A stretch of DNA of 64,000 nucleotides from an uncultured Gemmatimonadaceae bacterium (GTDB lineage: Bacteria; Gemmatimonadota; Gemmatimonadetes; Gemmatimonadales; GWC2-71-9): contig CAZNLY010000011.1 in assembly GCA_964574295.1 (NCBI GenBank), forward strand, positions 1,142 to 65,141. The letters are read 5' to 3'. This document shows, one piece after another, positions 21,051 through 36,023 of the stretch; within the stretch, counting starts at the first letter, position 1; the number at the start of each line of letters is the position of its first letter. A program made the position numbers and the translations under genes. Below the pieces are notes generated by a model. That model made no database searches, was not told the origin of the DNA, and worked only from the letters and a program-made list of their open reading frames with translations.

Positions 21051-21063
21051 CGGCGCCCGGCCA

Positions 21064-21258: not shown

Positions 21259-21269
21259 AGTCGGGAAGG

Positions 21270-22151
21270 CTAGCGGGAAGAAGGTTGGTGGTCAAGCACG
21301 TTTTCGTCCCCTTCCTCCGGTGCAATGTCCCATCCCTCGTCGAGCGCCGCCCGGCGGGGGCGGTCCCGGCGGCGGCGGGCCACATACGCGAGCGCCACCG
21401 CCGCCGCGATCACCAGCCAGATTCCGGTTCCGACCGTCCAGGTGGCCAGGCCAAACCGGAGCCGGACCGACCGGCGCCACGACTCGTCGAACCGGTCCAC
21501 GGAGAGTCCCGTGGTGGCGAGCACGGCGGCATCGAACGGGACGCCGGCCGCGAGCTGGCCCAGGAGCGGATCGAGCGTGCCTGTGGGGTTCCGTCTCCCG
21601 AGCTCGAGCACGGCCGTGGCGGCCAGCGCGTATCCGGCGTCGGCGGAGAGGCCGCTGCCGCGCAGGTGGGCATCGAGCTCCCCGAGCCCCGGCGTCTCCC
21701 CGCGGGCCACCGCCAGGTTGACCGCCAGCCGGTCGAAGACGTCCCACTGCCCGCTCGCCACCGTGGCGTACCCCTCGTCGAACCAGAGCGGCACCCGCTG
21801 CCGGACCGCGTCGTGCAGCGCCAGGTGGGCGAGCTCGTGGCGGAGGGTCCCGAGGACGTCACCGCCGTCCGCCCGGAGCACGATGGTGCGCCCCCCGGGG
21901 AACGCGGCCCCGGCACTCCATCCCGGCAGGCGGCCCCGGGTGAACTCCCGGAACTGGGCCGAATCGGCGGCCACGAACAGCCGGAGGGAACCGAGGTCGC
22001 GGCGCCCGATGCCAAGCCAGGTGGCGGGCTGGTCGGCGGCGTCCGCCAGCGCCGTGGCCAGGGCCTCCTGGTCGGGCCACGCCACCACCGTCACCCGCCC
22101 GACCGTGGTGACGCTGGGCTGCCCCTGCACGAGGAGGACGGCGAGGATCAG
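21270..22151 (-). CDS. Peptidase MA-like zinc metallopeptidase domain protein with C-terminal TM
   Basis: LRHELAH (HExxH) followed by VPLWFDEGYA; hydrophobic N-terminus; C-terminal TM and basic tail; start uncertain (CTG 22151). Confidence 0.75.
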   Translation of the reverse strand: MILAVLLVQGQPSVTTVGRVTVVAWPDQEALATALADAADQPATWLGIGRRDLGSLRLFVAADSAQFREFTRGRLPGWSAGAAFPGGRTIVLRADGGDVLGTLRHELAHLALHDAVRQRVPLWFDEGYATVASGQWDVFDRLAVNLAVARGETPGLGELDAHLRGSGLSADAGYALAATAVLELGRRNPTGTLDPLLGQLAAGVPFDAAVLATTGLSVDRFDESWRRSVRLRFGLATWTVGTGIWLVIAAAVALAYVARRRRDRPRRAALDEGWDIAPEEGDENVLDHQPSSR

Positions 22152-23020
22152 GCCGGCGAGTGTCGCGGGATCTCGCCCCCCGCCGCCGCGAGGTCCAGCA
22201 GCTCGCGGCAGCGCTTGCCCCAGGGATTGAACTTGTTGGCCTTGTGGCCGTCGGTCCACGCCTGGCGGGCCTCCTCGGGCCGTCCGGCAAACCAGAGGGC
22301 CCGGCCCAGCTCGTAGTACGCCTCGATCAGGTTCGGGCCAAGGGCCAGCGCCTTGCGGAAGAAGGTCTCCGCGTCCTCGTACATCTCGCGCTCCTGGTAG
22401 ACCAGCCCGAGGTAGTAGTGGGCATACAGGGTGGCCTTGCGGTCGTTGTCGAGCCGGATGGCGCGCGAGAGATGCTCGATCGCCTCGCCGAAGATCCGCT
22501 TCTTGAGGCAGATGTACCCGACATTGATCCGCGCCAGGGCGTTGGCCGGCTCCTTCATGAGGACGCGGGAGAAGGTGCCGAGCGCCTCATCGTACTGCTC
22601 CGCCAGCATCTGGGCCCACCCGAGCAGGGAGAGCGCCTGCGGGTCGTCCGGCGCGAGGGCCAGCGCCTTGCCGAGGGCCTGGATGGCCCCGGGAAAGTCG
22701 CCGAGCGAGATGAGGCTCCACCCCTTCTCGATGAAGGTGGAGGCGCCGAGGTGGTCGGCCTGGAGCACGGGGCGGGCGCCGGTGAACTGGGGGGCGCCCC
22801 CGCTCTCGACTTCCGCGGCGAGCTGCTTGTACTGCTCGACCAGGGTGCGGACCTGCTCCTTGAGGGCGGCGAGCTCGCCCAGCAGGCCGTCCACCCTCTT
22901 GAAGTAGCCGATGATGTCGCGCTTGAGGGCCAGGCGGTCGGGGCCGGACGGCGCGGCGGCCAGCCGCCCGGCGAGGGTGGCGTACTCGTCCCGCAGGGAG
23001 CGAAGCGGATCGGCGGTCAC
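22148..23020 (-). CDS. TPR protein with N-terminal coiled coil
   Basis: N-terminal heptad-like helix, then about 5 TPRs (ALARINVGYICLKK, AHYYLGLVY, AYYELGRAL); GTGA overlap with cheW. Confidence 0.8.
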   Translation of the reverse strand: MTADPLRSLRDEYATLAGRLAAAPSGPDRLALKRDIIGYFKRVDGLLGELAALKEQVRTLVEQYKQLAAEVESGGAPQFTGARPVLQADHLGASTFIEKGWSLISLGDFPGAIQALGKALALAPDDPQALSLLGWAQMLAEQYDEALGTFSRVLMKEPANALARINVGYICLKKRIFGEAIEHLSRAIRLDNDRKATLYAHYYLGLVYQEREMYEDAETFFRKALALGPNLIEAYYELGRALWFAGRPEEARQAWTDGHKANKFNPWGKRCRELLDLAAAGGEIPRHSPA

Positions 23021-23478
23021 GCGCCGGCGGCCGTGAGTTGCAGGCGCTCCTCGCTGCTGAAGAGCCGCCCCGCCTGGAGCAGGATGACCGTGCGTTCCGC
23101 CAGGGTGAGCACGCCGAGGATGTACTTGGCGGCCAGGCCGCGGATCATCGGCGGCGGTGCGGCCACCTTGCGGCTGTCGGTGCGCAGCACCTCCCGCACC
23201 GCGTCCACGATCATCCCCACCCGCTGGCCGTCCAGGGTCACGATCATCACCCGCGTCTCTTCGCGGTGAGGCGCCGGGGCGCCGAGGCGGGTCCGGAGGT
23301 CCACGACCGGGACCACGCCGTCGCCGTACGGCAGCACCCCCTCCAGGAATTCGGGTGCGCTCGGCACCGGGGCCGGCGCCTGGTAGCGGAGGATGCGGTC
23401 GACCTGGGATATCTCCAGGGCGAACTCCTGGCCGCCGGCCGCGAAGATGACCACCTGGATGTCGTCGCCTGTCGTCAT
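23017..23478 (-). CDS. cheW: Chemotaxis coupling protein CheW
   Basis: VVIFAAGGQEFALEISQVDRIL, PVVDLRTRLG, RVGMIVDAVREV; ATG 23478. Confidence 0.9.
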   Translation of the reverse strand: MTTGDDIQVVIFAAGGQEFALEISQVDRILRYQAPAPVPSAPEFLEGVLPYGDGVVPVVDLRTRLGAPAPHREETRVMIVTLDGQRVGMIVDAVREVLRTDSRKVAAPPPMIRGLAAKYILGVLTLAERTVILLQAGRLFSSEERLQLTAAGA

Positions 23479-23912
23479 GTGTCGCCCTTCCCGCCCAGGA
23501 GCCGCGCCCCCAGGGCCTTGAGATCGAGTATCGGCACCACCGCCCCGTCTCGGCGCGTCACCCCCAGCGCCCACGGGAGCGACTCGCCCGCCGGCACCGG
23601 CATGACCGGCTCCGCGAGCACCGCCTCCGCCTCCTCGACCTCGAGGCAGACTCGCTGGCGCCCGGCGCGCGCGAGCACGCCGATCTCCCCCCGAGGCCGG
23701 TCGCCGGCCGCGCCCCAGAGGATGTCGGAGAGGTTGACCACGGGGACGAGCCGCTCGCGAACCGCCACCACGCCCCGGAGCGCCGGTTCCGTGGCGGGGA
23801 CAGGAAATGTCGCCGCGAGGTCCACGACCTCGAGCACCTCCGCCACCTCGAGCCCGACCGGACGCCCGCCGGCGCGGACGAGGAGGTAGCGGCAGGGTTC
23901 GGTTCCGCTCAT
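23475..23912 (-). CDS. cheW: CheW-like protein (divergent)
   Basis: [35 protein letters not shown]. Confidence 0.8.
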
Positions 23913-24955
23913 GCGGCGTTCATCCGGGTCAGGAGGGCGGTCACCCGCTCCCCAACCTCCCCGACCGGGAGGACGAAATCGGCGCCACCCGCCGCCTGGG
24001 CGGCATTCGGCATCCCGAAGATCGTCGAGCTCTCCCGGTCCTGGGCAATCCCCTTGCCACCCGCGTCGTGGAGGACGCGCAGACCCTCGGCGCCATCGCG
24101 GCCGAGGCCGGTGAGCACCACGCCGATGGCGCGCTTGCCGAAGACGGAGGCGACGGAGCGGAAGAGGGGGTCGGCGGCGGGGCGCACGCCCCAGAGGGGA
24201 GGGCCCTGATCGAGGGCGAGGGCGATGCCGTCGGCGCCGTCCGTCACCCGCATATGATAATCCCCCGGCGCGATGTAGGCCGTGTCCGACACGAGCGGCG
24301 TGCCGTCCTCCCCCTCGACCACCGCGAGGTCGCTCTGGGCCGCGAGCCGCTCGGCAAGGCTCCGGGTGAAGCGCGGCGGCATGTGCTGGACCACGACCAC
24401 CGCGGCGTGCTGCCCACGGGCGATGCGTGGAATGACCTCCGCCAGGGCCCGCGGGCCCCCGGTCGACGCCGCGATCGCGACGCAGAACCGGGCCCGCCCC
24501 GGCAAGGCGAAGGCGCCGGCGGGGAGGTCGGGCCGGCGGGGGCGGGCCAGCACCGGGAGCCGGTGGATGTCGGCGGCGCGCGCCGCGCGGAGCGCGGCCA
24601 GCACCCGCTGGGCAAACCGGTCGCGCCCCTCCCCTTCCCGTTCCGCCTCCTTCGCCACCAGCTCCACCGCCCCGAGCTCCAGCGCGCGGATGGCTCCGGC
24701 GGTGCCCGGTCCGGCGTAGGAGGACACCACCACCACCGGGCGCGGCGCTTCCGACATCAGGTACCCGATGGCCGCCAGTCCATCCAGCTCCGGCATCTCG
24801 AGGTCCATCGTCACGAGGTCAGGCTGGTACTCGTGCACCTTGCGCAGGGCATCGAGCCCGTGCCGGGCGGTGGCCACCACGCGGAACTCGCCGGATCCGT
24901 CGATGATCTCCGTCAGCAGGCGTCGGAAGAGCGCGCTGTCGTCGGCCACCACCAC
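23909..24955 (-). CDS. cheB: Chemotaxis methylesterase CheB (REC + esterase)
   Basis: REC (ADDS...TMDLEMP); esterase triad motifs ASTGGP, QHMP, GLGRDG; start GTG 24955 or CTG 24964. Confidence 0.95.
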
Positions 24956-24965
24956 CGTCGGCAGG

Positions 24966-25454
24966 CTAGAGATGGGTCACCCCCCGCCGCACGGTGGACA
25001 CCTCGATCCGCCCGTCGTCCACAAAGAGCCGGATGGTCCGACCGTAGTCGCCGCCGACGGCGCTGCCGACCAGCGGGATGTTGTGGTGGCTGAGCGCGGC
25101 GCGGGTGGCGACCAGGTTGCGTTCACCCATCTGGACGGTGCCGGCCGGTTGCAGGTTGGTGAACATCGAGGCCCCGCCCGCGAGGCGGGCGGTGATGCGG
25201 GACTGCCGCGCGCCCCGCGCCGTCATTTCCTGGAGGAGGAGCGGGACGGCGGTCTGGGGGAACTTGCCCGGCGCGGGATCCCGCCGACTCAGGGCGGGAG
25301 ACGGAAGGAGGATGTGGGCCAGCCCGCCCACCTTGGCCTCCGGGTCGTGCAGCACCACCGCCACGCAGCTCCCAAGGCCGATCGTGAGGAGGATGTCTCC
25401 CGCCCCACCCGCCCGGTACTCCGCCACCCGGACCAGGATCTCGCGCTCCCTCAT
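24966..25454 (-). CDS. cheD: Chemoreceptor glutamine deamidase CheD
   Basis: [36 protein letters not shown]. Confidence 0.95.
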
Positions 25455-26275
25455 GCGGCCCGCCGGAAGATGCGCTCGCGCGCGTCGACGAGCGTCAGCG
25501 CGTCGCGCGCCGGCCCGAGCAGGGTCTCCACCTTCCCGAGCACCAGGATCCCGTCGGGCCGCAGCGCGGCGGCAAACGCGGCGAAGAGCCGCTCCTGCGT
25601 GGCGCGGTCGAAGTAGATCACGACGTTGCGGCAGAGGATGAGGTCATAGGCGTCGGTCGGCGCGGCCTCGCGCACCAGGTCGAACCGGCGGACCTGCACC
25701 AGCCGGCGAACCCCCTCGCGCACCCGCCACCCCTCCCCGACCCGCTCGCAATATCGCTCGGTAATCCACGCCGGCGCCTCCAGGAAGGACGCCTGGGGAT
25801 AGACGCCCGACTCCGCCCGCTCGAGGCTCTCCCGGTCGATGTCGGTGGCGTCAATCCGGGGCCGGTCGCCCCAGGCGGCGTGCCCCGACTCGGCGGCCAC
25901 CTCGGCACAGAGCATCGCGAGGGTGTAGGGCTCCTCGCCCGAGGAGCACCCGGCGCTCCAGGCAGTCAACCGACCCTGCCGGGCGGCGAGGAGGGCCGGC
26001 AGCAGGTCCGCCCGAAGGCGATCCCACGTCTCGGGATTCCGGTAGAAGCGGGTGACGTTGATGGTGAGCGCATCCTTGAGCTTTTCCCATTCCTCCGGCC
26101 GCCGGTCGAGTACCGCCAGGTAGTCGGCGTAGGTGTGGACGCCGCAGGCCCGCATCCGGACCAGCAGCCGCCGCCGCAGGCACTTGTCCTTGTAGGCGTC
26201 GAGGGTGAGCCCCGCCTCGCGGGAGACGCGGCGCGTCAGGGCCCGGAACCCGTCGTCGTCCTCGAGGCGGGTCAT
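25451..26275 (-). CDS. cheR: Chemotaxis methyltransferase CheR
   Basis: LTINVTRFYRN, SAGCSSGEEPY, ATDID, ILCRNVVIYFD; ATG 26275. Confidence 0.96.
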   Translation of the reverse strand: MTRLEDDDGFRALTRRVSREAGLTLDAYKDKCLRRRLLVRMRACGVHTYADYLAVLDRRPEEWEKLKDALTINVTRFYRNPETWDRLRADLLPALLAARQGRLTAWSAGCSSGEEPYTLAMLCAEVAAESGHAAWGDRPRIDATDIDRESLERAESGVYPQASFLEAPAWITERYCERVGEGWRVREGVRRLVQVRRFDLVREAAPTDAYDLILCRNVVIYFDRATQERLFAAFAAALRPDGILVLGKVETLLGPARDALTLVDARERIFRRAA

Positions 26276-27891
26276 GCCGGAACGTCCAGGATCTCGAGGT
26301 TCGATCGCGCCAGCTGGTGCGCCGGATTGAGCTCCGCCGCGCGCCGCCAGCACTCGCGCGCCCGGTCGCGGTCCCTGCGCCGGAAGGCCAGGTTGCCGAG
26401 CTTGAAGTAGAGGTCGTCGCCGAGCTCGGGCGCGAGCTTCGCGGCCCGGTCGTACGCGTCCTGGGCTTCGTCGAATCGGCCCGCGCGATAGTGGAGGTCG
26501 CCGAGGTTCTTCGACAGCTGCGGGAGACTCGGTTCCTCGGCGAGGGCGGCCCGCAGCACCTGCTCCGCCTCGGCGAGCTCGCCCGAGGCCTCCAGGAAGA
26601 CCGCCAGGTTGTTCCGGAGGACGGGGTGCGCGGGCCAGGCGGCGACACCCTCCCGCGCCAGCGTCACGGCGCGGACCGGGTCGTCGTCCACGGCGGCCGC
26701 CAGTCCGGCGGCCCAGTACCAGAGCGGCGGCACGGGCCGCGTGCCGAGCAGCTCACGCGCGCGCGCCAGGCGCCCCTCGGCCACCTCGGCATCGTCGCGC
26801 TTGAGGGCGATGATGCCCCAGAGGAGCATCGTGCGCGCGTCGTCGCGGGCCCGCGAGGCCGCCTCCGCGGCGGCCGCCTCCGCCTCGCCGAGGCGCCCGA
26901 GGCGCTCGAGCGCCAGCGCCAGGTTGTGGAGCGTCGCCCCCTTGGGCCCGCCCTGCTCGGCCGATGCCTGCAGCGCCTCGACCGCCTCGGCCCAGCGCGC
27001 CTGCCGCAGGGCGATCAACCCGAGGTAGAACGGCGCGTTGCCCTCGCTGGGGCGGAGCTCGGCCACGCGACGGAACTCCCGTTCCGCCTCGTCGAACATG
27101 CCGGTCTTGTAGAAGGCGACGCCGAGATTGCGGTGCTCCTCGACCCGGGCGTCGTTGACCCGCTCCGACTGCTGCGTGGCGGAGGTGCCGACGCGCCGGA
27201 CGAATCCGGCGCTGAGCAGGCCGTAGATGGCCTTCCCCACCTCGAACTCGACGAGCCCCGAGGCGTCCACCACATCCTGCACGTCGTTGCGCCCATTGAG
27301 GAGTGGGAGCACCACCTCCTGCTCGTCGCTGAGGCGGACCCCGGCGTCCCTCAGCCGCGCCTGGTCGGCCTCGAAGACCAGGTCGAGGGTCGGGATCTTC
27401 TTGGCGATCACCGCCCATTCGTCCACCCGGCGGGCGCCCTCGAGCAGGAGCGACTCGGGGCTGATCGACACGAGGAAGTCCTCGCGCTCCGGCCGCACCC
27501 CCGCCTCGAAGTTGAAGGTGCCGCTGCTCCAGGTGAAGAGGAAATACACCGCCTCCTCCACCTGAACCCGGATGTGCTCCTCGAGCTCGGCCCGCGTGAT
27601 GTGCCCGAGCTCCACGAGGATCTCGCCGAGCTTGCGATCGCGGTCCGCGGCCTGCCGGTCGATGGCGGCGCGCAGCTGCACGTCGGTCAGGCGCCCGTTC
27701 CGGACGAGGAGATCCCCCAGCCGGTCCCGCCGGTTCACGATCGACGCGTAGATGATCCGGCCGTCGTCGAAGTAGGTGTAGCCGAAGTTCTGGCGGTCGG
27801 CCACCGCCAGGCAGCCGGTCTTCCGCCCGAGCGCCAGCAGCTGGATGACGTCGGGAAGGCTGGCCTCCTTGAGGCTGCCCTTGATGGCCAT
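26272..27891 (-). CDS. DUF4388 (PatA-N) protein with MshEN-like insert and C-terminal TPRs
   Basis: IKGSLKEASLPDVIQLLALGRKTG...FTWSSGTFNF...LLLEGARRVDEW; RLGDLL/KLGEIL tandem motif; TPRs (HRNLGVAFYKTG); ATG 27891. Confidence 0.85.
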   Translation of the reverse strand: MAIKGSLKEASLPDVIQLLALGRKTGCLAVADRQNFGYTYFDDGRIIYASIVNRRDRLGDLLVRNGRLTDVQLRAAIDRQAADRDRKLGEILVELGHITRAELEEHIRVQVEEAVYFLFTWSSGTFNFEAGVRPEREDFLVSISPESLLLEGARRVDEWAVIAKKIPTLDLVFEADQARLRDAGVRLSDEQEVVLPLLNGRNDVQDVVDASGLVEFEVGKAIYGLLSAGFVRRVGTSATQQSERVNDARVEEHRNLGVAFYKTGMFDEAEREFRRVAELRPSEGNAPFYLGLIALRQARWAEAVEALQASAEQGGPKGATLHNLALALERLGRLGEAEAAAAEAASRARDDARTMLLWGIIALKRDDAEVAEGRLARARELLGTRPVPPLWYWAAGLAAAVDDDPVRAVTLAREGVAAWPAHPVLRNNLAVFLEASGELAEAEQVLRAALAEEPSLPQLSKNLGDLHYRAGRFDEAQDAYDRAAKLAPELGDDLYFKLGNLAFRRRDRDRARECWRRAAELNPAHQLARSNLEILDVPA

Positions 27892-29894
27892 CAGCGCCAC
27901 TCCTCGACGAGGCGCTCACCCAGGTCGGGCCATTCCCAGACACACTTTTCCCGGCTGCGAAATCCGCCCGCCGTCGCCCCGCTCGTCCGCGGACCCGAGG
28001 CGAGGCGCGCGGGCCGGGCCGCCGCACCCTCGAGGACCTCGCGCGCCATCGCCACGTCGGGCTCCCCGTGTCGCGCATCGGCCGCGGCCTCGATCCGCTG
28101 GACCAGCGCCTGCACCGCCCGGACCGACTCCGCCGGTCGGCCGGCCAGGTAGCTCGCCAGTTCTCCGTCGGCCCGGCCGTAGCGGGCGCCCAGCAGGCGC
28201 TCGATGACGGCCTGGCGCACCTCCCGTTCCGGCGCCGGCAGCTCGACCACGAGCCCGCCCGCCAGCCGGCTCGCCAGGCGCTCCTCGAAGTGCGCCACCT
28301 TGTCCAGCGGCTGGGCCGAGGTGAAGGCCAGCTGCGCCCCCTGATCCACGAGGTGGTTGTACAGGAGGAACAGCTCTTCCTGGGTCCGCTCCCGGCCCGC
28401 CACCAGCTGGACGTCGTCCATCAGGAACGCGGTGACCCGGCGGTACCGCGCCCGCCACTGCGGCACCCGATCCCGGTCGATCGCCTCGATGAGCTCGTCC
28501 GTGAAATCCTGCGCCCCGAGGCAGGCCACGACCGTGCCCGGCGCGGCCACCAGCAGGTTGCCGATGGCGTGGAGGAGGTGGGTCTTGCCGACGCCCGGAC
28601 CTCCGAGGATCACCAGCGGGTTGTAGAGGGCGCCGGGACGCCCGGCCACGTCGCGCGCCGCCTGGAGGGCCACCCGATTCCCCGCCGATTCGACGAGGTC
28701 GTCAAACACCCACACCGGCTCGGGCGCGGGCGGTGGCGAGCCCCCTTCCTGGGCGCGGGCCAGGAATGCCTCGGCGGCAGGAATGCCGTCCGGATCCCGA
28801 AAGACGGGATCGGCGCCGAGGTCGGCGGCGAGGGCGGTCGCTTGAGCCTCCAGCGACTGGAGGCGCTCGATATCACCGACGAAGCCCGCAAGCGCCTCGG
28901 CGGGATCGCCTTCGAGCCCCCCGTGGGCCAGCAACCCTTCGAGGCGCGCGGTTCGGTAGCCCTGATCTCCCCACCGGGCGATCGCTTCCTCGACCCGGCG
29001 TCGCCACCCCTCCACCTGGCGCGAGAGGGTGTCGGCCACGTCGGTGAGGAAGTCGCCGAACTCGTCGGCCGGTTCGGCGGCAGCCGCGGGCGCCGGGGCA
29101 GGCGCCGCCGGCACGGACTCCGCCCCGTCCGCCTGCGCCAGCGGCACCCCGGGCGTGGGCACGTCTCCCGCCGTGCCGCGCACCCCGAGCACGAGCTTCG
29201 CCTGCGCCGGATCGAGCGGCGCCTCACCCGCCGCCTGAAAGGCCACAAGGCGATTGAGCGCCCCGACCAGTTCGCGGACACTGTCGAGCGGAAGGGACGC
29301 GACGGCCTCGAGGACGCCCGGCTGAAACCGCACCTGCCGTTCGTCCGCCTTCCGGCGCAGGATGGCCACCCGCGTCTCGTAGTCCGGCGCGGCGATGTCG
29401 ATCACGAGGCCCCCCGCCACTCGGCGCAGGAGTCGCTCGTCGAGGGCCTCGATCTCGGCGGGCGGCCGATCGGAGGTCAGGACCACCTGCCTGCCGGCGG
29501 TCTGCATCTGGTCCACCAGCCGCAGGAGCTCCGCCTGCGCCTCCCGCCGGTGCGTGATGAACTGGATGTCGTCGAGCAACAGGAGGTCGGACTCGGCGAA
29601 GCGGCGCCGGTACGCCTCGCCCTGCCCTGCCGCGACCGCCGTGTTGAACGCTTCGATGAAGTCGTCCAGCGTGACGTACTCGACGCCCAGGGCCGGGTTG
29701 ATGGCCAGCGCGGCGTGGCCGATGGCCATCAGGAGGTGCGTCTTGCCCAGCCCCGGGCGCGCGTAGATGACGAGCGGGTTGTAGGCCGAGCCCGGCGACT
29801 CGGCGACGGTGCGCGCCGCCGTGGCCGCCAGCCGGTTGGCGGACCCGACGACGAACCCGTCGAACCGGAACTGCGGGCTCAGCTGGGCGGTCAC
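27891..29894 (-). CDS. Tandem double DnaA-type AAA+ ATPase lacking DnaA domains I, II and IV
   Basis: Module 1: FDGFVVGSANR, YNPLVIYARPGLGKTHL, LLDDIQF, TSDRPP, VRELVGAL. Module 2: GNRVAL, YNPLVILGGPGVGKTHL, MDDVQL, RLASRL. GTG 29894 overlaps the mglA stop. Confidence 0.88.
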   Translation of the reverse strand: MTAQLSPQFRFDGFVVGSANRLAATAARTVAESPGSAYNPLVIYARPGLGKTHLLMAIGHAALAINPALGVEYVTLDDFIEAFNTAVAAGQGEAYRRRFAESDLLLLDDIQFITHRREAQAELLRLVDQMQTAGRQVVLTSDRPPAEIEALDERLLRRVAGGLVIDIAAPDYETRVAILRRKADERQVRFQPGVLEAVASLPLDSVRELVGALNRLVAFQAAGEAPLDPAQAKLVLGVRGTAGDVPTPGVPLAQADGAESVPAAPAPAPAAAAEPADEFGDFLTDVADTLSRQVEGWRRRVEEAIARWGDQGYRTARLEGLLAHGGLEGDPAEALAGFVGDIERLQSLEAQATALAADLGADPVFRDPDGIPAAEAFLARAQEGGSPPPAPEPVWVFDDLVESAGNRVALQAARDVAGRPGALYNPLVILGGPGVGKTHLLHAIGNLLVAAPGTVVACLGAQDFTDELIEAIDRDRVPQWRARYRRVTAFLMDDVQLVAGRERTQEELFLLYNHLVDQGAQLAFTSAQPLDKVAHFEERLASRLAGGLVVELPAPEREVRQAVIERLLGARYGRADGELASYLAGRPAESVRAVQALVQRIEAAADARHGEPDVAMAREVLEGAAARPARLASGPRTSGATAGGFRSREKCVWEWPDLGERLVEEWR

Positions 29895-30493
29895 GCCGCG
29901 GTGCTTCCCGCCGCCAGGCGCTGGAGGACGAGCTCGGAAATGCCCTTGAGCGTCTCGAAGACGCCGTGGCCGTGCAGGCAGTCGGCGCCGAAGCTCCGGA
30001 CGCCGCGGAAGTTGAGGGCGTCGTCCAGCTCGCCGGGCGTGAGGATGAGGTCCCGGGGGAGATCCTGCTTGTTGTATTGGAAGACCAGCGGGAGCTGGCG
30101 GATGTCCACGCCCTGCGCCAGGAGGTTTTCCTGCAGGTTCTGCAGGCTCTCGAGGTTGTCGTCGAAGCGGCGGGCCTGGCTGTCGCCCACGAACACGACT
30201 CCGTCGGCCCCCTGCAGGACGAGCTTCCGGGTGGCGTTGTAGTAGACCTGCCCCGGGACGGTGTAGAGCTGGAACCGGGTGGTGAAGCCGCTGATGCTCC
30301 CGAGGTCGATCGGCAGGAAGTCGAAAAACAGCGTCCGGTCCGACTGCGTCGCGAGGGACACCATCCGGCCGCGGCGGCTTTCCGGCACCCTCCCGTACAC
30401 ATACTGGAGGTTGGTCGTCTTGCCGGACCGGCCCGGGCCGTAGTAGACGATCTTGCAGGTGATTTCGCGGGTCGTGAAGTTGACGAGCGACAT
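29891..30493 (-). CDS. mglA: MglA-family small Ras-like GTPase
   Basis: KIVYYGPGRSGKTTNL, DRTLFFDF, YTVPGQVYY, DGVVFVGDSQ, QYNKQDL, closely matching Myxococcus MglA; ATG 30493. Confidence 0.95.
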   Translation of the reverse strand: MSLVNFTTREITCKIVYYGPGRSGKTTNLQYVYGRVPESRRGRMVSLATQSDRTLFFDFLPIDLGSISGFTTRFQLYTVPGQVYYNATRKLVLQGADGVVFVGDSQARRFDDNLESLQNLQENLLAQGVDIRQLPLVFQYNKQDLPRDLILTPGELDDALNFRGVRSFGADCLHGHGVFETLKGISELVLQRLAAGSTAA

Positions 30494-30495: not shown

Positions 30496-30957
30496 TTACC
30501 GTCCGAAGAGCGAGCGCAGGCTCGCATTGAGTTCGTGCTCGAAGTCGGCCGCCAGCACCTCGCGCGCGGGCGCCGCCGGCGGCGCCACGGCGCGCAGGTC
30601 CTGCACCAGCCGCTCGAAGAAGAGGCGGACGAGGCCGAGCGAGCTGTCGCGGTCGTACACCACGAGGGCGATCCAGCGCCCCTGCGGCAGGTCGAAGGCC
30701 GCCAGGAAGAGCCCGCGCGACGAGCCCTGGTGCGAGAGCGACCGTGAGGCGCCCGAGGCGGTGAGGCGCCCGAGCTCCTCCGTACTCGCCATGATGGCGG
30801 CCCCGAGCGCGGCGGCCGACATCACGTCGAGGGCGCGGGTGAAGCCGTGCTGCGCCACCACCTGCCCGGAGGAGGTGGTGAGCAGGACCAGCCGGGCGGC
30901 CGATTCCGCGAGGAACCGCTCGAGCGGCTCGCCCACCCACGGTTCGATGGCGCGCAT
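30496..30957 (-). CDS. mglB: MglB-type Roadblock/LC7 protein (putative MglA GAP)
   Basis: LERFLAESAARLVLL...GQVV...AALGAA...SLGLVRL, matching the MglB pattern; directly upstream of mglA. Confidence 0.85.
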   Translation of the reverse strand: MRAIEPWVGEPLERFLAESAARLVLLTTSSGQVVAQHGFTRALDVMSAAALGAAIMASTEELGRLTASGASRSLSHQGSSRGLFLAAFDLPQGRWIALVVYDRDSSLGLVRLFFERLVQDLRAVAPPAAPAREVLAADFEHELNASLRSLFGR

Positions 30958-31307
30958 CAGGCCAGCCGCTCCGCCACGCGCCGCAGCTCCAGCCGCACCA
31001 GTCCCACGTTCACCGCGGGATCGGTCACCGCCACCACCAGCAGGTCGCCGGGCCCCGGAACGGCCAGGAGCGCCCCCCCCTCGGCCTGCAGGTGAACGAA
31101 CGCCGGCGGGGTCCGTCCGGCGGCCTCCGTGGCCCGCGCGAGGCGGGCCACCACGCCGGCGGTGAGCGCCGCCACGGCAGCCCCGTCCACGCCCTCCATC
31201 GACGACTCGGCCACCACCAGGCCCTCCTCGGCGGAGACGATCATCGCGCCGCGCACGCCGCGCACGCGGGTGATCGTGTCCAGCGAGCCCGCGAGGCCGG
31301 CCTTCAC
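30957..31307 (-). CDS. Stand-alone Roadblock/LC7 protein (MglC-like)
   Basis: VRGVRGAMIVSAEEGLVV...VAAL...LVVAVTDPAVNVGLVRLELRR; GTG 31307. Confidence 0.8.
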   Translation of the reverse strand: MKAGLAGSLDTITRVRGVRGAMIVSAEEGLVVAESSMEGVDGAAVAALTAGVVARLARATEAAGRTPPAFVHLQAEGGALLAVPGPGDLLVVAVTDPAVNVGLVRLELRRVAERLA

Positions 31308-32185
31308 GCGGGGCGCTCCAGCCACCGGCGCGCGGCCTCGGACGCGCGCTCGGCATGCCGCGCCAGTCGCCCGATCGGCACGCTGCTGTCGCGCACCAGG
31401 AGGAGGAGGGACTCCCCCGAGGGGGCCGAGAGGTAGAGGTTCGCGTCGGCCGTCTCGGCCGCCACGCTCGTCCACTCGCCGAGCGCCAGGAGCCGCGCCG
31501 CCCGGGCGGCGTCCCGGTAGACCCCCGCCAGGTGTGCGGCCACCGCGTCGCCGACGTCGGCGCCATCGGGCGCGCGCAGCCCTCCCCCCAGCCGGAGGCC
31601 GCTCGCGTCGAGCAGCAGCAGCCCGTCGTGCGCGCCCTCGAGGCCGGCAAAGACGTCCTCACCGGCGGCCGACGCGCCGGGCATCGGCCGGGGCGGCAGC
31701 GACGGCGCCGCCGCCGGGACGGCAGGCGCGGTGGCCGGGGCCTCGGGAGCCACGGGGGCCGGCGTCTCGGGCCCTGCCGTCCGGAGCGCCTCACGCACGC
31801 GCAGGGCGGCCGCCGCCACGCCCTCGGCATCGGGGTCGGCAGCCAGCGCGGCCTCCAGGTGTTCGAGCGCGAGCGGCAGCTCGCCGGCCACGAAGTACAG
31901 GAAGCCGATTCCCTTGTGCGCGCCCGCGTGCCGTTCGTCGAGCCGGAGCGCGATGTCCCACTCGTCGAAGGCGCGCTCGTGATCGCCACGGTCGCCGAGG
32001 ACCCGCGCCAGGAGGTCGTGCGCGTCGGCCAGGTCCGGATACCGGGAGAGTCCGGCAAGCGCCACCTTCTCGGCGGCCTCCAGCTGGCCGCGCCGGCGGA
32101 GCGCCTCGCCGAGCGGGAGGAAGACCAGGCTCGACGGATCGGCGGCGAGCTGCGCGGTCAGCACCCGGATGTCTTCAGAGCTCAC
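31304..32185 (-). CDS. TPR-Roadblock/LC7 fusion protein
   Basis: N-terminal TPRs (SLVFLPLGEALRRRG, AHKGIGFLYF), Pro/Ala linker, C-terminal roadblock (DGLLLLDASGLRLGG...PIGRLAR); GTG 32185. Confidence 0.78.
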   Translation of the reverse strand: MSSEDIRVLTAQLAADPSSLVFLPLGEALRRRGQLEAAEKVALAGLSRYPDLADAHDLLARVLGDRGDHERAFDEWDIALRLDERHAGAHKGIGFLYFVAGELPLALEHLEAALAADPDAEGVAAAALRVREALRTAGPETPAPVAPEAPATAPAVPAAAPSLPPRPMPGASAAGEDVFAGLEGAHDGLLLLDASGLRLGGGLRAPDGADVGDAVAAHLAGVYRDAARAARLLALGEWTSVAAETADANLYLSAPSGESLLLLVRDSSVPIGRLARHAERASEAARRWLERPA

Positions 32186-33329
32186 GCCGCCCTCCGAGTG
32201 CGTCCTGCAGGGTCTCCACCGCGGACCGCCAACGCGCCACCGTCGCTTCCCGCCCGCGCTCGGTGTCGGGCAGGGGACTCGTCCCCTGCCAGCGCGCCCA
32301 GGTCTCCATCGCCGCGCCGTAGCGGCCCCGGCCCACCTCGGCGAGCCCGAGGAGGCGGAGCGCCGCCGCGGCGGCGGGATCGCAGGCGAGGGCCTGCGAC
32401 AGGCGCATGGCGGCCTCGTCGTAGCGCGCCTCCGCCAGGAGCACGCGCCCGAGGAGCAGGTGGGCGCGGGACTCCTCGGGAAAGGCCAGCACCGCTTCCT
32501 CGGCCGTGAAGCGCGCGCGGGCCACCTCGCCGAGCAGCAGGGCCTCCTCCGTGGAGGAGACCAGCCCGCCCAGGTCGTGCACCGGCGCCTCATCGCGCCC
32601 GGCGGCCGCCGGTTCCGCCAGCACGATAATACCGGCGGTGGCGAGGCCGAAGAGGGTGCGCGCGACGTCGAAATCCGATCGCCCGAGCGCGGCCGCCAGG
32701 GATCGGACGTCGGTGGCGCCGTCGATCCCCGCCAGCACCTCCCACTCGAAGGGGAGGAGGTCGAGCGGCCCGCCCTCCCCCTCCGGCGCGCCCGTGAGGC
32801 GCGCCACCACGCCGAGGTGCGGCACCTTCGGCTCGATTCGCGACCATTCGTCGATCCGGCGCGCCGCCTCCATCAAGAGCGACTCGGTCGGAATCCGCAC
32901 GGTCGCCTCGCCGAGCGACGGCGGGAGGGGGCCGTCCTCGAAGGAGAAGTACCCCTCGGACCAGCTCATCAGCTCGAAGATGACCTCCTCCACCTGGGCA
33001 CGGATCTGCCGCTCGAGCTCCTTGCGCGGCAGGACTCCCATTTCGACCAGGATGTCGCCGAGGCGGTGCCCGGGCCGGGTCCGCTGAATCCCGGCCGCCC
33101 GTGCCACGTCATCCTCCCGCACCTTGCCGGCCCGCACGAGCAGCGCCCCCAGCGGGTGCGGGTTGCTCCGGATCTCGGCGGCGACCACGGCCCCGCCCTC
33201 GAAGTAGACGACGCCGGCGTTCTGGCGCAGCTCGGAAGTGACCCGCAGGACCCCGGTCTTCCGCCCCAGGTCGAGGAGCTGGAAGACGTCGTGGATCTGC
33301 AGTTCCTTGAGCGGGCCCTCGATCGGCAC
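32175..33329 (-). CDS. DUF4388 (PatA-N) protein with MshEN-like insert and C-terminal TPRs
   Basis: IEGPLKELQIHDVFQLLDLGRKTG...MSWSEGYFSF...LLMEAARRIDEW; PLGALL/RLGDIL tandem motif; paralog of 26272-27891. Confidence 0.85.
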   Translation of the reverse strand: MPIEGPLKELQIHDVFQLLDLGRKTGVLRVTSELRQNAGVVYFEGGAVVAAEIRSNPHPLGALLVRAGKVREDDVARAAGIQRTRPGHRLGDILVEMGVLPRKELERQIRAQVEEVIFELMSWSEGYFSFEDGPLPPSLGEATVRIPTESLLMEAARRIDEWSRIEPKVPHLGVVARLTGAPEGEGGPLDLLPFEWEVLAGIDGATDVRSLAAALGRSDFDVARTLFGLATAGIIVLAEPAAAGRDEAPVHDLGGLVSSTEEALLLGEVARARFTAEEAVLAFPEESRAHLLLGRVLLAEARYDEAAMRLSQALACDPAAAAALRLLGLAEVGRGRYGAAMETWARWQGTSPLPDTERGREATVARWRSAVETLQDALGGRREL

Positions 33330-33332: not shown

Positions 33333-36023
33333 CTACCCCGCCGAACCGGCAAAGATGTGGACCAACTCGCGAGTGGACCGAAGCTGGGTGCGCGCCGCGG
33401 CGGCCAGCGCGCTCCCGGGATCGGCGCGCACCACCGTCTCCCACTGGGTGGTGGCCTCCTGGAACCGCTTGAGGCGCACCAGGGCGGAGCCGTAGGCGAG
33501 CCGCGCGGCGGCCGACTCGGGGTCGAAGCGCAGGACCCGCTGGAAGGCCTCGATCGCCTGGTCGGGGCGACCGTCCTCGAGCAGGAGCTCGCCCAGGAGG
33601 GTGAGCGCCTGGAGGTCCCAGGGATCGGCGCCGAGGAGCGCGATCAGCGGCGCCATCGCGGCCTTCGGCGTGTCCACCCGGCGGAGCAGCTGCGCGAGCG
33701 CGCGCGCCGCCTCGGAGTAGGTCGGGAGCAGGTCGAGCGCCCGCTGGTAGGCCAGGCGCGCGCCGGTCCAGTTCTGCCGCTCCTCCTCCAGCGACCCCAG
33801 CTCCAGCCACACCTGCACCAGCCCGGCGTCGAGCTGCAGCGCCGCCTGGTACGCGTCCAGCGCCGCCTCGCGCTCCCCGAGCCGGCGCGAAACGCCGGCC
33901 TGGAGCTGCAGGAGGTCGGGCCGGCCCGGCGCGCGCGCCTGCGCGTGGCGGAGCGCGTCGAGCGCACGGACCGGATCGCCCGTGGCGAGCCGGACCCGGG
34001 CACAGGCGACGAGCGCCTCGACGTCGGCCGGCGCGAGCTGGGCCAGCGCCTCGGCCCCGGCCACCGCCTCCCCTGGCCGCCCGAGCGCCAGGAGCGAGCG
34101 GACCTCCCCGAGGAGCGCCGCCACGTCGGCGGAATCGGCCGCGCGCGCCTCGCGGTAGCGCTCCAGCGCCTCGCCGTGGAGGCCGCGCTTCCCGAAGATG
34201 TCGCCGAGGAGAACGGCCACCCGGGCGCGCGACGCGCCGCGCGCGACCGCGCGCGTCAGTTCGGCGGAGGCCAGCTCGAGCAATCCCTTGCTGATGTAGT
34301 CCCGGGCGAGGTGGAGCGCGGCCTCCTCGGCGGCGGGCGCGGCGGGAGCCGGGGCGGCGGGGGCCAGCCCCTCGAAGATCCCCTCGAGCAGCGTGGGGTC
34401 GAAGGCGAACGCGTCGCCGAGCGAGGCGGCGGTGACGTCCGCGCTGATCTCGGGGACGACCGAGATGAGGGGGTCCTCGTACTGGAGGTCGATGGCCAGC
34501 TGGAACTTCTGCTGGATGTAGTACGGCTCGAGCTCGAGGGCGCGCTTCGTGGCGCGGAGCGCGCCGTCGAAGTCGCCGAGTTGGCTGAGGGTGAAGCTGA
34601 GGTTGTAGTGGGCCGAGGCGTAGGTCGGCGCCGCGTCCACGGCGCGGGCGAAGGCGTTCCGGGCGTCGGCGTAGCGCTGGAGTTCCATGAGCACCAGCCC
34701 AATGCCGTTCCAGGCGGGGGCGCTGCCGGGGTGGTCGGCCAGGGTGGCGCGGTAGGTCTCGAGCGCCTGCTGGAAGCGCCGGAGCTGGAAGAGCAGCAGC
34801 CCGAGGTTGAGCCGGGGAGCCGCGAGGTCCCGCCCGACCTGGATCGCGGCGCGAAACGCCGCCTCGGCCTCGCCGGTGCCGGGGTCGTGGGCCAGGAGCA
34901 CCCCGAGGTTGTTCCAGGCGAGGGCATACTCGCCGTCCAGGGAGATGGCCCGCTCGTAGGAATCGCGCGCCGCGTCGCGTCGGCCGGCCTGGTGCAGGCA
35001 GACGCCCCGCTCGTTCCAGACCTTCGGGGAGTCGGCGTGCTCCTCGACGAGCACGTCGTACAACTCGAGGGCGCCGGCCAGGTTGCGACGGAGGAGGTGT
35101 ACCTCGGCCATCGCCTGGAGGGTGAGCCGGCGGTCCTCCCCGTGGTCGAGGGCCAGGCGGTACTCGCGGAGGGCCTCCGCGTAGTACCCCTTTTGCCGGA
35201 AGGCGAGCCCGAGGTTGAAGTGGGCGAGCGTGCTCCCTTCGGTGGGGACGGGGCGCATCGCGTCGGCCAGCGACTGCCGGGTCGGGCCGGCGCCCTCCTC
35301 GTCGGCGGCGATGGCCAGGTTGGCCTGGGCCCGGCCGAGGGTCGGGTTGAGCGCGATCGCGCGCTTGGTCGCCGCGCGCGCGTCGTCGTGCAGGCCCATG
35401 TCGCCCAGCACGAAGGCGAGGAGGTAATGGGCGTCGGCGTAGTCGGGGTTGCGCTGGACCGCCTGCCGGAGGGTCTCGAGGGCCGCCTCGTTCAGGCCGC
35501 GGTGATACAGCGCCTCCCCGTAGTAGAACAGGGCGACGGGGCTGTCGGGATCGCGCTCGGCCGCGCGGCGGAACCATTCCTCCGCGGCCTCGACACGCCC
35601 GCGCGCCTTCTCCGCCAGTCCCAGCTGGAGCAGCGTCGGGATGTCATCGGGATGCCAGGCGAGGAGGGCCTCGAACTCGGCCACCGCCTCGTCCACGTGG
35701 GCGAGCGCGGCGTAGGCGCGGGCCAGCTCCCAGCGGGCCTCGCGGTCGCCGGCATCGCGCCGCAGCCGCTCGCGCAGCTCGGCCACGCGCCGGTCGTAGT
35801 AGCCGCTGGCCCGGTAGGTGATCTCGAGATTGGCCTGCGCCACCTGCATGCGCGGGTCCAGCTCGAGGGCGCGGGAGAACTCCGCGATGGCCTCGGGGAT
35901 GAGGCCTTTCTGGTAATACAGGACGCCGAGGTTGTTGTGGGCGCCGGCATCCGACGGGTCGATCCGGCGGGCGAACGACCGAAGGACCGCGAGGTCCCGC
36001 TCGGGCAGCGCCGGACCGCCCAT
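33333..36023 (-). CDS. Large cytoplasmic multi-TPR protein (896 aa)
   Basis: Many TPR signatures (AHNNLGVLY, AHFNLGLAF, VWNERGVCL, AWNNLGVLL, AHYNLSFTL); no signal peptide. Confidence 0.88.
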   Translation of the reverse strand: MGGPALPERDLAVLRSFARRIDPSDAGAHNNLGVLYYQKGLIPEAIAEFSRALELDPRMQVAQANLEITYRASGYYDRRVAELRERLRRDAGDREARWELARAYAALAHVDEAVAEFEALLAWHPDDIPTLLQLGLAEKARGRVEAAEEWFRRAAERDPDSPVALFYYGEALYHRGLNEAALETLRQAVQRNPDYADAHYLLAFVLGDMGLHDDARAATKRAIALNPTLGRAQANLAIAADEEGAGPTRQSLADAMRPVPTEGSTLAHFNLGLAFRQKGYYAEALREYRLALDHGEDRRLTLQAMAEVHLLRRNLAGALELYDVLVEEHADSPKVWNERGVCLHQAGRRDAARDSYERAISLDGEYALAWNNLGVLLAHDPGTGEAEAAFRAAIQVGRDLAAPRLNLGLLLFQLRRFQQALETYRATLADHPGSAPAWNGIGLVLMELQRYADARNAFARAVDAAPTYASAHYNLSFTLSQLGDFDGALRATKRALELEPYYIQQKFQLAIDLQYEDPLISVVPEISADVTAASLGDAFAFDPTLLEGIFEGLAPAAPAPAAPAAEEAALHLARDYISKGLLELASAELTRAVARGASRARVAVLLGDIFGKRGLHGEALERYREARAADSADVAALLGEVRSLLALGRPGEAVAGAEALAQLAPADVEALVACARVRLATGDPVRALDALRHAQARAPGRPDLLQLQAGVSRRLGEREAALDAYQAALQLDAGLVQVWLELGSLEEERQNWTGARLAYQRALDLLPTYSEAARALAQLLRRVDTPKAAMAPLIALLGADPWDLQALTLLGELLLEDGRPDQAIEAFQRVLRFDPESAAARLAYGSALVRLKRFQEATTQWETVVRADPGSALAAAARTQLRSTRELVHIFAGSAG

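Follow-up and report, generated by a model that had tools for sequence, protein, structure and literature searches.

A tandem DnaA domain-III protein encoded beside PATAN-TPR genes in Gemmatimonadota, a candidate ATPase subunit of a polarity/motility signalling module

The window analysed here, a stretch of 64,000 nucleotides from an uncultured Gemmatimonadaceae bacterium, carries a gene for a relative of the replication initiator DnaA at the centre of a polarity/Che operon. The usual neighbours of dnaA are replication genes such as dnaN, and the question raised by this locus is what a DnaA-type ATPase does among signalling genes. In a preliminary description, the gene, referred to below as 2xDnaA, was presented as encoding two DnaA-type modules in one chain, translationally coupled to mglA, and was suggested to specify a pseudo-dimer serving as an MglA effector or scaffold, or a DnaA-titrating factor linking polarity to replication initiation. 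The genes of the block are as follows.

19188..23020, minus strand: genes for a TPR protein (290 aa), a Peptidase_MA_2 protein and a TPR protein (665 aa), closing the conserved block before mraW
23017..26353, minus strand: cheR-cheD-cheB-cheW block, downstream
26272..27891, minus strand: PATAN(DUF4388)-TPR protein 2, translationally coupled, downstream of 2xDnaA
27891..29894, minus strand: 2xDnaA gene, tandem DnaA-type AAA+ protein of 667 aa (ORF translation, Pfam, NCBIfam, homologues)
29891..30472, minus strand: mglA, Ras-like GTPase (E 1.7e-68 to M. xanthus MglA)
30496..30951, minus strand: MglB-like roadblock protein, Robl3 (best PDB matches are MglB)
30957..31475, minus strand: second Roadblock/LC7 protein
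31304..32170, minus strand: TPR + Roadblock/LC7 fusion protein
32175..33329, minus strand: PATAN(DUF4388)-TPR protein 1
33333..36023, minus strand: 896-aa TPR protein
36027..39531, minus strand: cheW-cheY-cheA-cheC block, upstream

Translation of the ORF at 27891..29894 (minus strand) gave a protein of 667 aa, in agreement with the sequence quoted in the preliminary description, whose observations on this gene were confirmed in every detail. The GTG start codon (29894-29892) and the TGA of mglA (29893-29891) share a GTGA overlap. At the other end, the TGA of 2xDnaA (27893-27891) overlaps the ATG (27891-27889) of the downstream PATAN/DUF4388-TPR gene, a junction not mentioned in the preliminary description. 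More than 120 clusters of full-length homologs were found; therefore, 2xDnaA is a true gene rather than an ORF that arose by chance. Its family is large and uncharacterised; all members with an organism name are from Gemmatimonadota, and the databases label these proteins as "DnaA/Hda family protein" or, wrongly, as the replication initiator.

The domain content of the protein was determined with Pfam and NCBIfam models. Bac_DnaA (PF00308) matched twice (E 6.7e-91), and Bac_DnaA_C had no Pfam match even at E<=1, which was exactly the outcome that had been expected. TIGR00362 also matched twice, each time within model positions 102-332 of 437, so only domain III is represented. The alignment with B. 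subtilis DnaA begins at residue 4 of 2xDnaA and residue 110 of DnaA; hence, domains I and II are missing. The architecture proposed earlier, two domain-III modules without domains I, II and IV, was therefore borne out. The AF2 model (pLDDT 87) contained two DnaA-III folds, disordered regions at 239-275 and 626-647, a helical domain at 278-384 and a terminal helix. In a Foldseek comparison, each module of 2xDnaA matched DnaA-III at a TM of 0.95, the superposition on domain III of B. subtilis DnaA having an rmsd of 1.4 A. Modules 1 and 2 share 36% identity, and module 1 is ~40% identical to B. subtilis domain III. The parts of the protein are as follows.

29190..29894, minus strand: module 1, a complete DnaA domain III (residues 1-235; Pfam, motifs, AF2, Foldseek)
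29070..29180, minus strand: disordered Pro/Ala-rich spacer (residues 239-275; pLDDT <50; variable in length and sequence)
28719..29069, minus strand: conserved helical linker domain (residues 276-392; starts with DEFxxFL)
28029..28718, minus strand: module 2, a second DnaA domain III (residues 393-622; Pfam, motifs, AF2)
27894..28028, minus strand: C-terminal tail (residues 623-667; a disordered stretch, then the terminal helix SxEKxVWxWPxxxxRxxEEWR)

The linker domain, which contains W297, R307 W308, G312 and D330 P331, had no match in Pfam or the PDB. The tail is a candidate docking peptide.

Comparison with known systems showed which identities do not apply. With DnaA the protein shares the domain-III fold, Walker A and B, sensors I and II and the Box VII arginines, all of them present twice. 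In contrast to DnaA, it lacks domains I and II and the helix-turn-helix of domain IV, in whose place there are a disordered stretch and one short helix, and it has a novel helical linker domain and a C-terminal tail. Since no Bac_DnaA_C was found and the TIGR00362 match stops at 332 of 437, 2xDnaA has no DNA-recognition domain and cannot be an initiator that binds DnaA boxes. Like 2xDnaA, Hda/HdaA consists of domain III only, with the arginine finger kept and the DNA-binding domain absent; however, Hda has only one module, ~230-250 aa long, and carries a beta-clamp motif at its N-terminus. The score of 2xDnaA was 150.8 bits against a cut-off of 194.8 for the Hda model TIGR03420, and the HdaA models, with cut-offs of 297 and 300, gave 66 and 33 bits. 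A conserved clamp-binding motif of the QL[SP]LPL type was not found in the family alignment. The stretch QLSPQF at the N-terminus occurs only in the window protein and close relatives, others having TLNPLY or PLNPYF, and by position it is the ordinary start of domain III. With two modules in addition, 2xDnaA was rejected as an Hda/HdaA. The classic-clade ring-forming unfoldases p97/Cdc48, NSF and ClpB also carry two AAA+ modules per polypeptide (tandem type II AAA+), but the match of 2xDnaA to p97/Rix7 was loose (TM ~0.27, rmsd ~25 A), whereas each of its modules, ~160 residues apart, superimposes on DnaA-III; this identity was likewise rejected.

Motif conservation was judged on 32 homologs with 60-81% identity. 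In module 1, Walker A reads YARPGLGKTH (AxPGxGKT), Walker B is D108 D109, sensor I is TSDR (140-143), Box VII is R154/R157 and sensor II is R207; A45 of Walker A is invariant, and the P-loop pattern [AG]x4GK[ST] is still satisfied. Module 2 has the Walker A GGPGVGKT (GxxGxGKT), D493 D494, a degenerate sensor I (TSAQ), R539/R543 and R592. The W-rich, acidic tail (RSxEKxVWxWP....R..EEWR) is invariant. Thus, the asymmetry of the modules that had been pointed out, with an atypical Walker A in the first and an altered sensor I in the second, is kept in the 32 homologs together with the DD pairs, the arginines and the tail. In the wider family, the linker motif and the tail are kept down to ~30% identity, and Walker A and B of module 1 are present in every member examined. 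Several clades lack sensor I and the arginine finger in module 1, so hydrolysis-driven cycling cannot be universal. Several clades also have a degenerate module 2. In the clade of P0205, P0222 and P0212, its Walker A, Walker B and lid are gone; what it retains is the arginine segment of Box VII (RLxSRF) and the DR of sensor I. Retention of Box VII despite loss of the P-loop would be expected if module 2 donated an arginine finger to module 1, and it lends indirect support to the idea of a pseudo-dimer. The packing between the modules was not confident in the AF2 model (pTM 0.49).

The gene neighbourhood was compared among 21 places, the window included. In the window, the matches listed above identify the neighbours as a genuine MglA and a protein similar to MglB; Robl3 had no Pfam match, and its C-terminus forms a conserved EFExxLxxSLxxLF helix. 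The mglB-mglA-2xDnaA unit is flanked on both sides by PATAN-TPR genes, which thus stand beside mglA/mglB-type genes. No type IV pilus or flagellar genes were found within the window. The order mglB-mglA-2xDnaA-PATAN/TPR was observed in 14 of the 21 places (the window and 13 further ones; named are the window, L001-L006, L011, L017-L020 and L098), with no mglB-like gene detected in L017. A CheA-type kinase was nearby in 13 of these 14, L011 having cheY/cheC alone. The mglA-linked block is bordered by ileS/rluD on one side and by the dcw division cluster on the other, and relatives have it beside divIVA; this proximity is equally compatible with a role in division or polarity and with one in motility. 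The translational linkage to mglA reported for the window was found again in Gemmatimonadales relatives, where the GTGA overlap is kept down to ~34-40% identity.

The remaining 7 of the 21 loci had no adjacent mglA (L007, L010, L012, L013, L015, L096, L097), and thus homologs occur independently of mglA, an observation that the preliminary description had named as one that would refute its proposal. These loci comprise the minimal arrangements roadblock-2xDnaA-PATAN/TPR-PepMA (L012, L013, L096) and 2xDnaA-PATAN/TPR-PepMA (L097), a Che-TPR-PATAN-2xDnaA locus without MglA (L010) and a 2xDnaA-receiver fusion within a phosphorelay locus (L015); mglB-like-2xDnaA and rluD-2xDnaA junctions occur among them. 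A large TPR protein resembling the 896-aa one (~31% identity over the N-terminal ~510 residues) is encoded upstream of the distant 2xDnaA in L007 and L010. A PATAN-TPR gene was directly beside 2xDnaA in 19 of the 21 places, usually with a Peptidase_MA_2 gene, which also accompanies the minimal core. Therefore, PATAN-TPR and not MglA is the constant neighbour, and MglA can be at most a lineage-specific partner. MglA/MglB and Che are best read as lineage-specific additions to a PATAN/TPR module.

The cluster resembles the MglA/MglB/SgmX and Frz system of M. xanthus in having MglA, MglB-like and further roadblock proteins, large TPR proteins and a Che pathway. The Myxococcus counterparts are scattered, and that system is not known to include a DnaA-like ATPase, whereas here all the genes lie in a single block around the tandem ATPase. 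In M. xanthus, the TPR protein SgmX is reported to be the MglA-GTP effector for pili.

Separate fusions of MshEN (PilB-N) to DnaA modules were found in two type IV pilus clusters, L014 and L099. They carry two DnaA modules flanking a long coiled coil and lie beside pilD/pilB; L014, the fuller locus, additionally has pilT/pilC/pilS/pilR. Like 2xDnaA, they combine two DnaA-III modules with a long helical spacer, have no domain IV and are encoded with motility machinery. Unlike 2xDnaA, they have an N-terminal MshEN, a coiled coil of 350-1300 aa instead of the 110-aa linker domain, and no W-rich tail; the linker HMM of 2xDnaA had no match in them. They probably represent an independent or very distant recruitment. 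PATAN-associated motility/polarity modules were reportedly described by Makarova in 2006 and by Wuichet and Sogaard-Andersen in 2015. The PATAN domain binds the N-terminal domain of PilB1 in cyanobacteria, and PATAN-GspE_N fusions are known (bioRxiv 10.1101/2021.06.11.447907). PATAN genes are found near group 1/5 mglA (mglA/mglB), with no DnaA-like gene or ATPase mentioned (PMC4316618), and PATAN proteins co-occur with SgmX in STRING (PMC11580455).

From the architecture, motif conservation, synteny and family distribution observed, it is quite possible, if tentative, that 2xDnaA descends from DnaA but works, instead of initiating replication, as a switch or scaffold whose assembly depends on nucleotide, and that it forms the ATPase subunit of a PATAN/TPR polarity/motility signalling module, which has so far been seen only in Gemmatimonadota. 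The constant core of such a module would be 2xDnaA with PATAN-TPR and usually Peptidase_MA_2, joined in Gemmatimonadales by MglB-MglA, a Frz-like Che pathway and more proteins of the roadblock and TPR types. ATP would be bound by module 1, whose Walker A and B were intact in all members examined, and module 2 would supply a Box VII arginine finger, either in cis or to the next molecule. Head-to-tail oligomers like those of DnaA may result, their assembly and disassembly being timed by ATP binding and hydrolysis. Two conserved acidic/aromatic peptides may dock the TPR/PATAN partners: DEFxxF, with which the linker domain opens, and WxWP...EE-COOH in the C-terminal tail. Via the PATAN domain, the complex would determine the place or the time at which a polar machine, for example type IV pili, is active, with MglA/MglB and CheY~P serving as inputs in the lineages having them.

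A more specific reading, which must be considered rather unlikely, is that this AAA+ ATPase of the initiator clade has become a self-assembling polarity switch: 2xDnaA would form ATP-polymerised, DnaA-like filaments at the pole or pilus base, controlled by the MglB-like roadblock protein and read out by PATAN-TPR, which would thereby position type IV pili or the growth/budding pole. In this scheme MglA would be dispensable, as in the roadblock-2xDnaA-PATAN loci. If this were true, the target of a roadblock regulator would be an AAA+ ATPase, in place of a small GTPase or in addition to one.

It is unlikely that 2xDnaA is a dedicated MglA effector or regulator, binding MglA-GTP or acting on the MglA nucleotide cycle. 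The GTGA overlap in Gemmatimonadales relatives and the order mglB-mglA-2xDnaA, kept down to ~34% identity, speak for such a role, but besides the seven loci without adjacent mglA, the tail and linker motifs are kept in the mglA-less members too, so their target is not MglA-specific.

Replication coupling, in which 2xDnaA would co-oligomerise with DnaA, either setting off DnaA-ATP hydrolysis by an arginine finger as Hda does or serving as a DnaA-titrating sink, and so link polarity or division to initiation, appears improbable to a considerable degree. The similarity of module 1 to B. subtilis DnaA-III, its nearly superimposable fold with Box VII, arginine finger and sensor II intact, the position beside dcw or divIVA, and the reported localisation of PatA, the founding PATAN protein, at cell-division sites are consistent with it. 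However, the family conserves no clamp-binding motif, the score with the Hda model fell below the cut-off, module 1 lost its arginine finger and sensor I in several clades, the conserved neighbours are all signalling or scaffold genes with no replication gene among them, and the related DnaA-module fusions are located in pilus clusters. The earlier suggestion of a DnaA-titrating factor thus found no positive evidence.

It is very improbable that the modules, when loaded with ATP, use the initiator-specific motif for non-specific DNA binding and, in the manner of ParA/MinD, position a chemosensory/polarity complex on the nucleoid. ELIEAI (hydrophobic) and GRERTQ (basic) of module 2 correspond to the ssDNA-contacting H/B motifs of DnaA, so module 2 may bind nucleic acid; R116/R117 are kept in module 1, and no ParA-like gene was found among the cluster genes scanned. 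Against this, the residue of module 1 that corresponds to I190 of B. subtilis is N/H, domain III of DnaA by itself binds ssDNA alone and does so only when it forms an ATP filament at an unwound origin, 2xDnaA has no domain IV or other dsDNA-binding domain, and module 2 is degenerate in several clades.

To our knowledge, DnaA domain III is regarded as an engine dedicated to replication origins, and its only well-known derivative, Hda, also works in replication. The findings suggest that this engine has been reused for signalling or scaffolding, a role previously undescribed. If 2xDnaA is indeed the ATPase subunit of a PATAN/TPR module, it would be a clear case of an initiator ATPase that was duplicated, stripped of its DNA-recognition parts and reused in polarity/motility signalling, and the poorly understood PATAN domain would gain a candidate enzymatic partner. 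An annotation error should also be noted: JGI pipelines name such genes "chromosomal replication initiator protein DnaA", and as a result Gemmatimonadota genomes appear to have two dnaA genes. The block would represent a single-operon version of the Frz + MglAB circuit, which could be dissected in cultured Gemmatimonas.

The 667-aa tandem DnaA-type AAA+ protein (hereafter 2xDnaA) is encoded on the minus strand at 27891..29894, and the translation of this ORF was the same as the sequence quoted in the preliminary description. Bac_DnaA (PF00308) was matched twice by Pfam (E 6.7e-91), and Bac_DnaA_C was not matched at E<=1, both as had been expected; the feature is real and was described correctly. 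The GTG start (29894-29892) was indeed found to overlap the TGA of the upstream gene mglA (29893-29891), as GTGA at 29894-29891, and the TGA of 2xDnaA (27893-27891) has one base in common with the ATG of the downstream gene (27891-27889). Because its start and stop overlap the adjoining genes, 2xDnaA is tightly coupled to both neighbours. The NCBIfam model TIGR00362 (DnaA) was also matched twice, over model positions 102-332 of 437 only. Residues 4-221 aligned with residues 110-327 of B. subtilis DnaA (PDB sequences); therefore, domain III forms the very start of 2xDnaA. Module 1 (residues 1-235) and module 2 (393-622) share 36% identity. It is firmly established that 2xDnaA is a DnaA-derived tandem AAA+ protein unable to recognise DnaA boxes.

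An AlphaFold2 model was built from a 46-sequence family alignment (mean pLDDT 87). It contained a DnaA-III fold (residues about 1-235), a disordered segment (239-275), a well-predicted all-helical domain (278-384), a second DnaA-III fold (about 395-622), another disordered segment (626-647) and a terminal helix (658-666); the relative placement of these parts is undefined in the model because pTM was 0.49. The top Foldseek match in the PDB was domain III of B. subtilis DnaA (TM 0.95 on target, rmsd 1.4 A, 40% identity), followed by Thermotoga and Aquifex DnaA, whereas the alignments to tandem classic AAA+ proteins (e.g. p97) were no more than nominal (TM about 0.27, rmsd about 25 A).

The invariance of motifs was scored in 32 homologs with 60-81% identity. 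The Walker A of module 1 was invariant (A45-x-P47-G48-x-G50-K51-T52). Since A45 never varied, the alanine in place of the first glycine, noticed previously, is a family trait, and the P-loop pattern [AG]x4GK[ST] is still satisfied. D108 D109, T140 S141 D142 R143 (the canonical sensor I, also noticed previously), R154, R157 and R207 were invariant as well. In module 2, G431, G434, G436 K437 T438, D493 D494, R539, R543 and R592 did not vary, and sensor I was variable. A motif table covering all clades revealed a mosaic of kept and lost motifs. All members examined have both Walker motifs of module 1, and sensor I and Box VII of this module were gone in several branches (P0131, P0151, P0163 and P0187). 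Module 2 of the P0205/P0222/P0212 branch is without Walker A, Walker B and lid and retains the sensor-I 'DR' and a near-canonical Box VII (RLKSRFESGL, RLASRLEDGL, RLRSRFEGCM). Because an ATP-blind module that retains its arginine segment is what would be expected of an arginine-finger donor, this pattern is the main indirect argument that the two modules may act on each other, and the intramolecular pseudo-dimer proposed earlier is plausible.

All genes of the neighbourhood lie on the minus strand.

Genes around 2xDnaA in the window, in transcription order
41360-44548, minus: ileS, followed by rluD
after rluD, minus: cheW, cheY, cheA, cheC
after cheC, minus: TPR protein of 896 aa
after the 896-aa TPR protein, minus: first PATAN(DUF4388)-TPR gene
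31304-32170, minus: TPR-roadblock fusion (N-terminal TPR repeats, C-terminal Roadblock/LC7)
between the fusion and the 151-aa protein, minus: roadblock protein
30496-30951, minus: 151-aa MglB-like roadblock protein (PDB matches)
between the 151-aa protein gene and 2xDnaA, minus: mglA
27891-29894, minus: 2xDnaA
directly after 2xDnaA, minus: second PATAN-TPR gene (PATAN2)
after PATAN2, minus: cheR, cheD, cheB, cheW
after cheW, minus: TPR protein, Peptidase_MA_2 (21270-22259), another TPR protein
after the last TPR protein, minus: mraW and the dcw cluster

With a match to MglA of M. xanthus at E 1.7e-68, the GTPase is a true MglA. The 151-aa protein had no Pfam match, and its best PDB matches were MglB of M. 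xanthus (E 1e-8) and T. thermophilus (E 7e-6); therefore, the local order is mglB-mglA-2xDnaA. Positions 19188-39531 of the minus strand form one unbroken block, with ileS/rluD on one side and the dcw cluster on the other. It unites the genes of a Che pathway (cheW-Y-A-C ... cheR-D-B-W) with mglB-mglA and with genes for four TPR proteins, two PATAN-TPR proteins and two more roadblock proteins. In Myxococcus, by contrast, the corresponding Frz and MglAB genes are scattered. The products of cheR, cheB and cheD all act on chemoreceptors; a regular-expression search of window positions 1-64000 for the conserved MCP signalling-hairpin motif detected no receptor gene. We know of no description of a fusion of TPR repeats with Roadblock/LC7. 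The MglB-like roadblock protein has a conserved C-terminal helix 'EFExxLxxSLxxLF' (window 30496-30951; L011 8928-9401; L012 9564-10004; L013 9470-9970). Because a gene for such a protein lies directly 5' of 2xDnaA, with no mglA between, in three loci, action of the MglB-like protein on the ATPase is a possibility.

A search of 5.8 billion proteins yielded >120 full-length 2xDnaA clusters (59-100% identity), so this is a conserved family rather than a one-off. In an exhaustive search of 50%-identity representatives, full-length relatives with two modules could be followed to about 30-35% identity. The homologs are named 'DnaA/Hda family protein' or 'DnaA ATPase domain-containing protein' by NCBI, from Gemmatimonadales or Gemmatimonadota, and 'chromosomal replication initiator protein DnaA' by JGI pipelines. 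P0171, among the most distant relatives, is from a Gemmatimonadota MAG, and relatives of the divergent P0222 are named Gemmatimonadota, Gemmatimonadales or Longimicrobiales. Wide conservation of the family is thus firmly shown, and all organism-named members encountered belong to Gemmatimonadota. A contig scan with the single 2xDnaA protein as query gave only six close Gemmatimonadales loci; a metagenome scan with alignment A2, in which only the generic P-loop pattern was used, gave mostly ordinary dnaA loci, with family members in L016-L021 only. A neighbour-joining tree of the modules and canonical DnaA had little resolution in its deep branches (support 88% for the module-2 clade, 55-66% for the module-1 clade, <35% for all else). 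P0260 (L100 8001-9689) and P0261, of about 555-560 aa, likewise have tandem DnaA-III modules and no domain IV, with a short inter-module linker and a different N-terminus, and the neighbourhood of P0260 is unrelated and metabolic. Therefore, tandem DnaA modules arose more than once.

Twenty further loci were examined over 16-22 kb around each gene. The order mglB-mglA-2xDnaA-PATAN2 was found in 13 of them. Six close Gemmatimonadales MAG loci (L001-L006) were perfectly syntenic with the window, and the mglA match ended on the first base of the 2xDnaA match in L002, L003, L005 and L006, where the contigs reach. The block with CheA was kept in L017-L020 and L098 (39-73% identity), with no mglB-like gene detected in L017. 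In L011 (34% identity), the mglB-mglA-2xDnaA-PATAN order was kept, and the Che genes were cheY/cheC only. An adjacent mglA was absent from seven loci, in whose genomes it could lie elsewhere.

Loci without an adjacent mglA
L012, L013, L096: ileS-rluD-roadblock-2xDnaA-PATAN/TPR-Peptidase_MA_2
L097: ileS-lspA-rluD-2xDnaA-PATAN/TPR-Peptidase_MA_2
L010: cheW-Y-A-...-cheC-TPR-PATAN-2xDnaA
L007: large TPR protein-2xDnaA
L015: 2xDnaA with a fused receiver domain; Hpt genes, receiver genes and a hybrid kinase alongside

In L007, the 200-aa gene that comes next to the distant homolog, on its 3' side, is not MglA. The Peptidase_MA_2 gene accompanies the 2xDnaA-PATAN/TPR core in every minimal locus (L012, L013, L096, L097), and a gas-vesicle cluster (gvpA-like, gvpK, gvpL/F) lies just 3' of this core at L097 14727-17541.

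With the window included, mglA adjoins 2xDnaA in 14 of 21 places and a PATAN protein in 19, so the link to MglA presumed in the preliminary description is real but not universal: because of the seven loci, homologs occur independently of mglA over the span examined. An effector dedicated strictly to MglA is unlikely. The constant partner of 2xDnaA is the PATAN-TPR protein. That 2xDnaA is encoded within a PATAN/TPR block, in Gemmatimonadales together with MglB/MglA and a Che pathway, is firmly documented.

Behind module 1 comes a spacer variable in both length and sequence, and then a 'DEFxxFL' motif, which is strongly conserved, and about 110 residues that form a helical domain, with conserved W297, R307 W308, G312 and D330 P331. 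This domain had no Pfam match, and its closest PDB sequence, that of a designed protein, was not a significant match (E 0.009). The C-terminus reads 'SxEKxVWxWP....R..EE-x-x'. Even the most distant members have kept this tail and the DEF motif ('IVDWNKPPTRLDMEL', 'ITDWPAMEDLLEMEY', 'ILDWSLLRERIMEEY'). P0212 (738 aa; L015 9249-11465) has a C-terminal response-regulator receiver domain in place of the W-rich tail, and its gene adjoins a hybrid histidine kinase and Hpt-REC-Hpt-REC genes, a setting in which P0212 may be controlled directly by a phosphorelay.

The N-terminal 'QLSPQF' was rejected as a clamp-binding motif because it is not conserved (homologs have TLNPLY, PLNPYF) and the stretch is a normal domain III start. 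The Hda model (NCBIfam) scored 150.8 bits against a cut-off of 194.8. Both results speak against an Hda-like role coupling 2xDnaA to replication, which is improbable, and the suggestion of a DnaA-titrating factor was left unsupported. The ssDNA-contact positions of B. subtilis DnaA (I190 and K222), mapped through the PDB-sequence alignment, are N/H and R in module 1, and I and R-E-R are kept in module 2. Since these residues are partly retained, 2xDnaA may bind nucleic acid; that it is a nucleoid-tethered positioning ATPase is the least probable reading.

At L014 4309-15923 and L099 2681-13179, a PilB/MshE N-terminal (MshEN) domain is fused to one or two DnaA-III modules, with coiled coils of up to about 1300 aa; in the largest fusions (1990 and 1876 aa), a coiled coil of this length lies between two modules. 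The fusion genes sit between pilD and pilB of type IV pilus clusters, with pilT, pilC, pilS and pilR coming next in L014. Because they have neither the linker domain nor the tail, these fusions are analogues rather than members of the family. They connect DnaA modules to motility a second time, independently of the window family. Literature searches turned up no relevant account of the family, or of DnaA-like ATPases combined with MglA, PATAN or MshEN; what is rated as new is that a known module, the DnaA AAA+ domain, occurs in a tandem arrangement and a functional setting for which no description was found.

The preferred, though tentative, reading is that 2xDnaA is an ATP-dependent assembly switch or scaffold. 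Module 2 would give the arginine finger, and the DEF motif and acidic C-terminal tail would dock TPR/PATAN partners, for which EEVD-type peptides and TPR clamps provide an analogy. PATAN genes near mglA were noted by Wuichet and Sogaard-Andersen, with no DnaA-like ATPase (PMC4316618). In Synechocystis, the PilB1 N-terminal domain is bound by PATAN, and PATAN-GspE_N fusions exist (bioRxiv 10.1101/2021.06.11.447907). PATAN and PilB-N are thus linked by binding and fusions, PilB-N and DnaA-III by fusions, and PATAN and DnaA-III by the operon of the window. From these three pairwise links, pilus or polarity control is the most likely arena of 2xDnaA.
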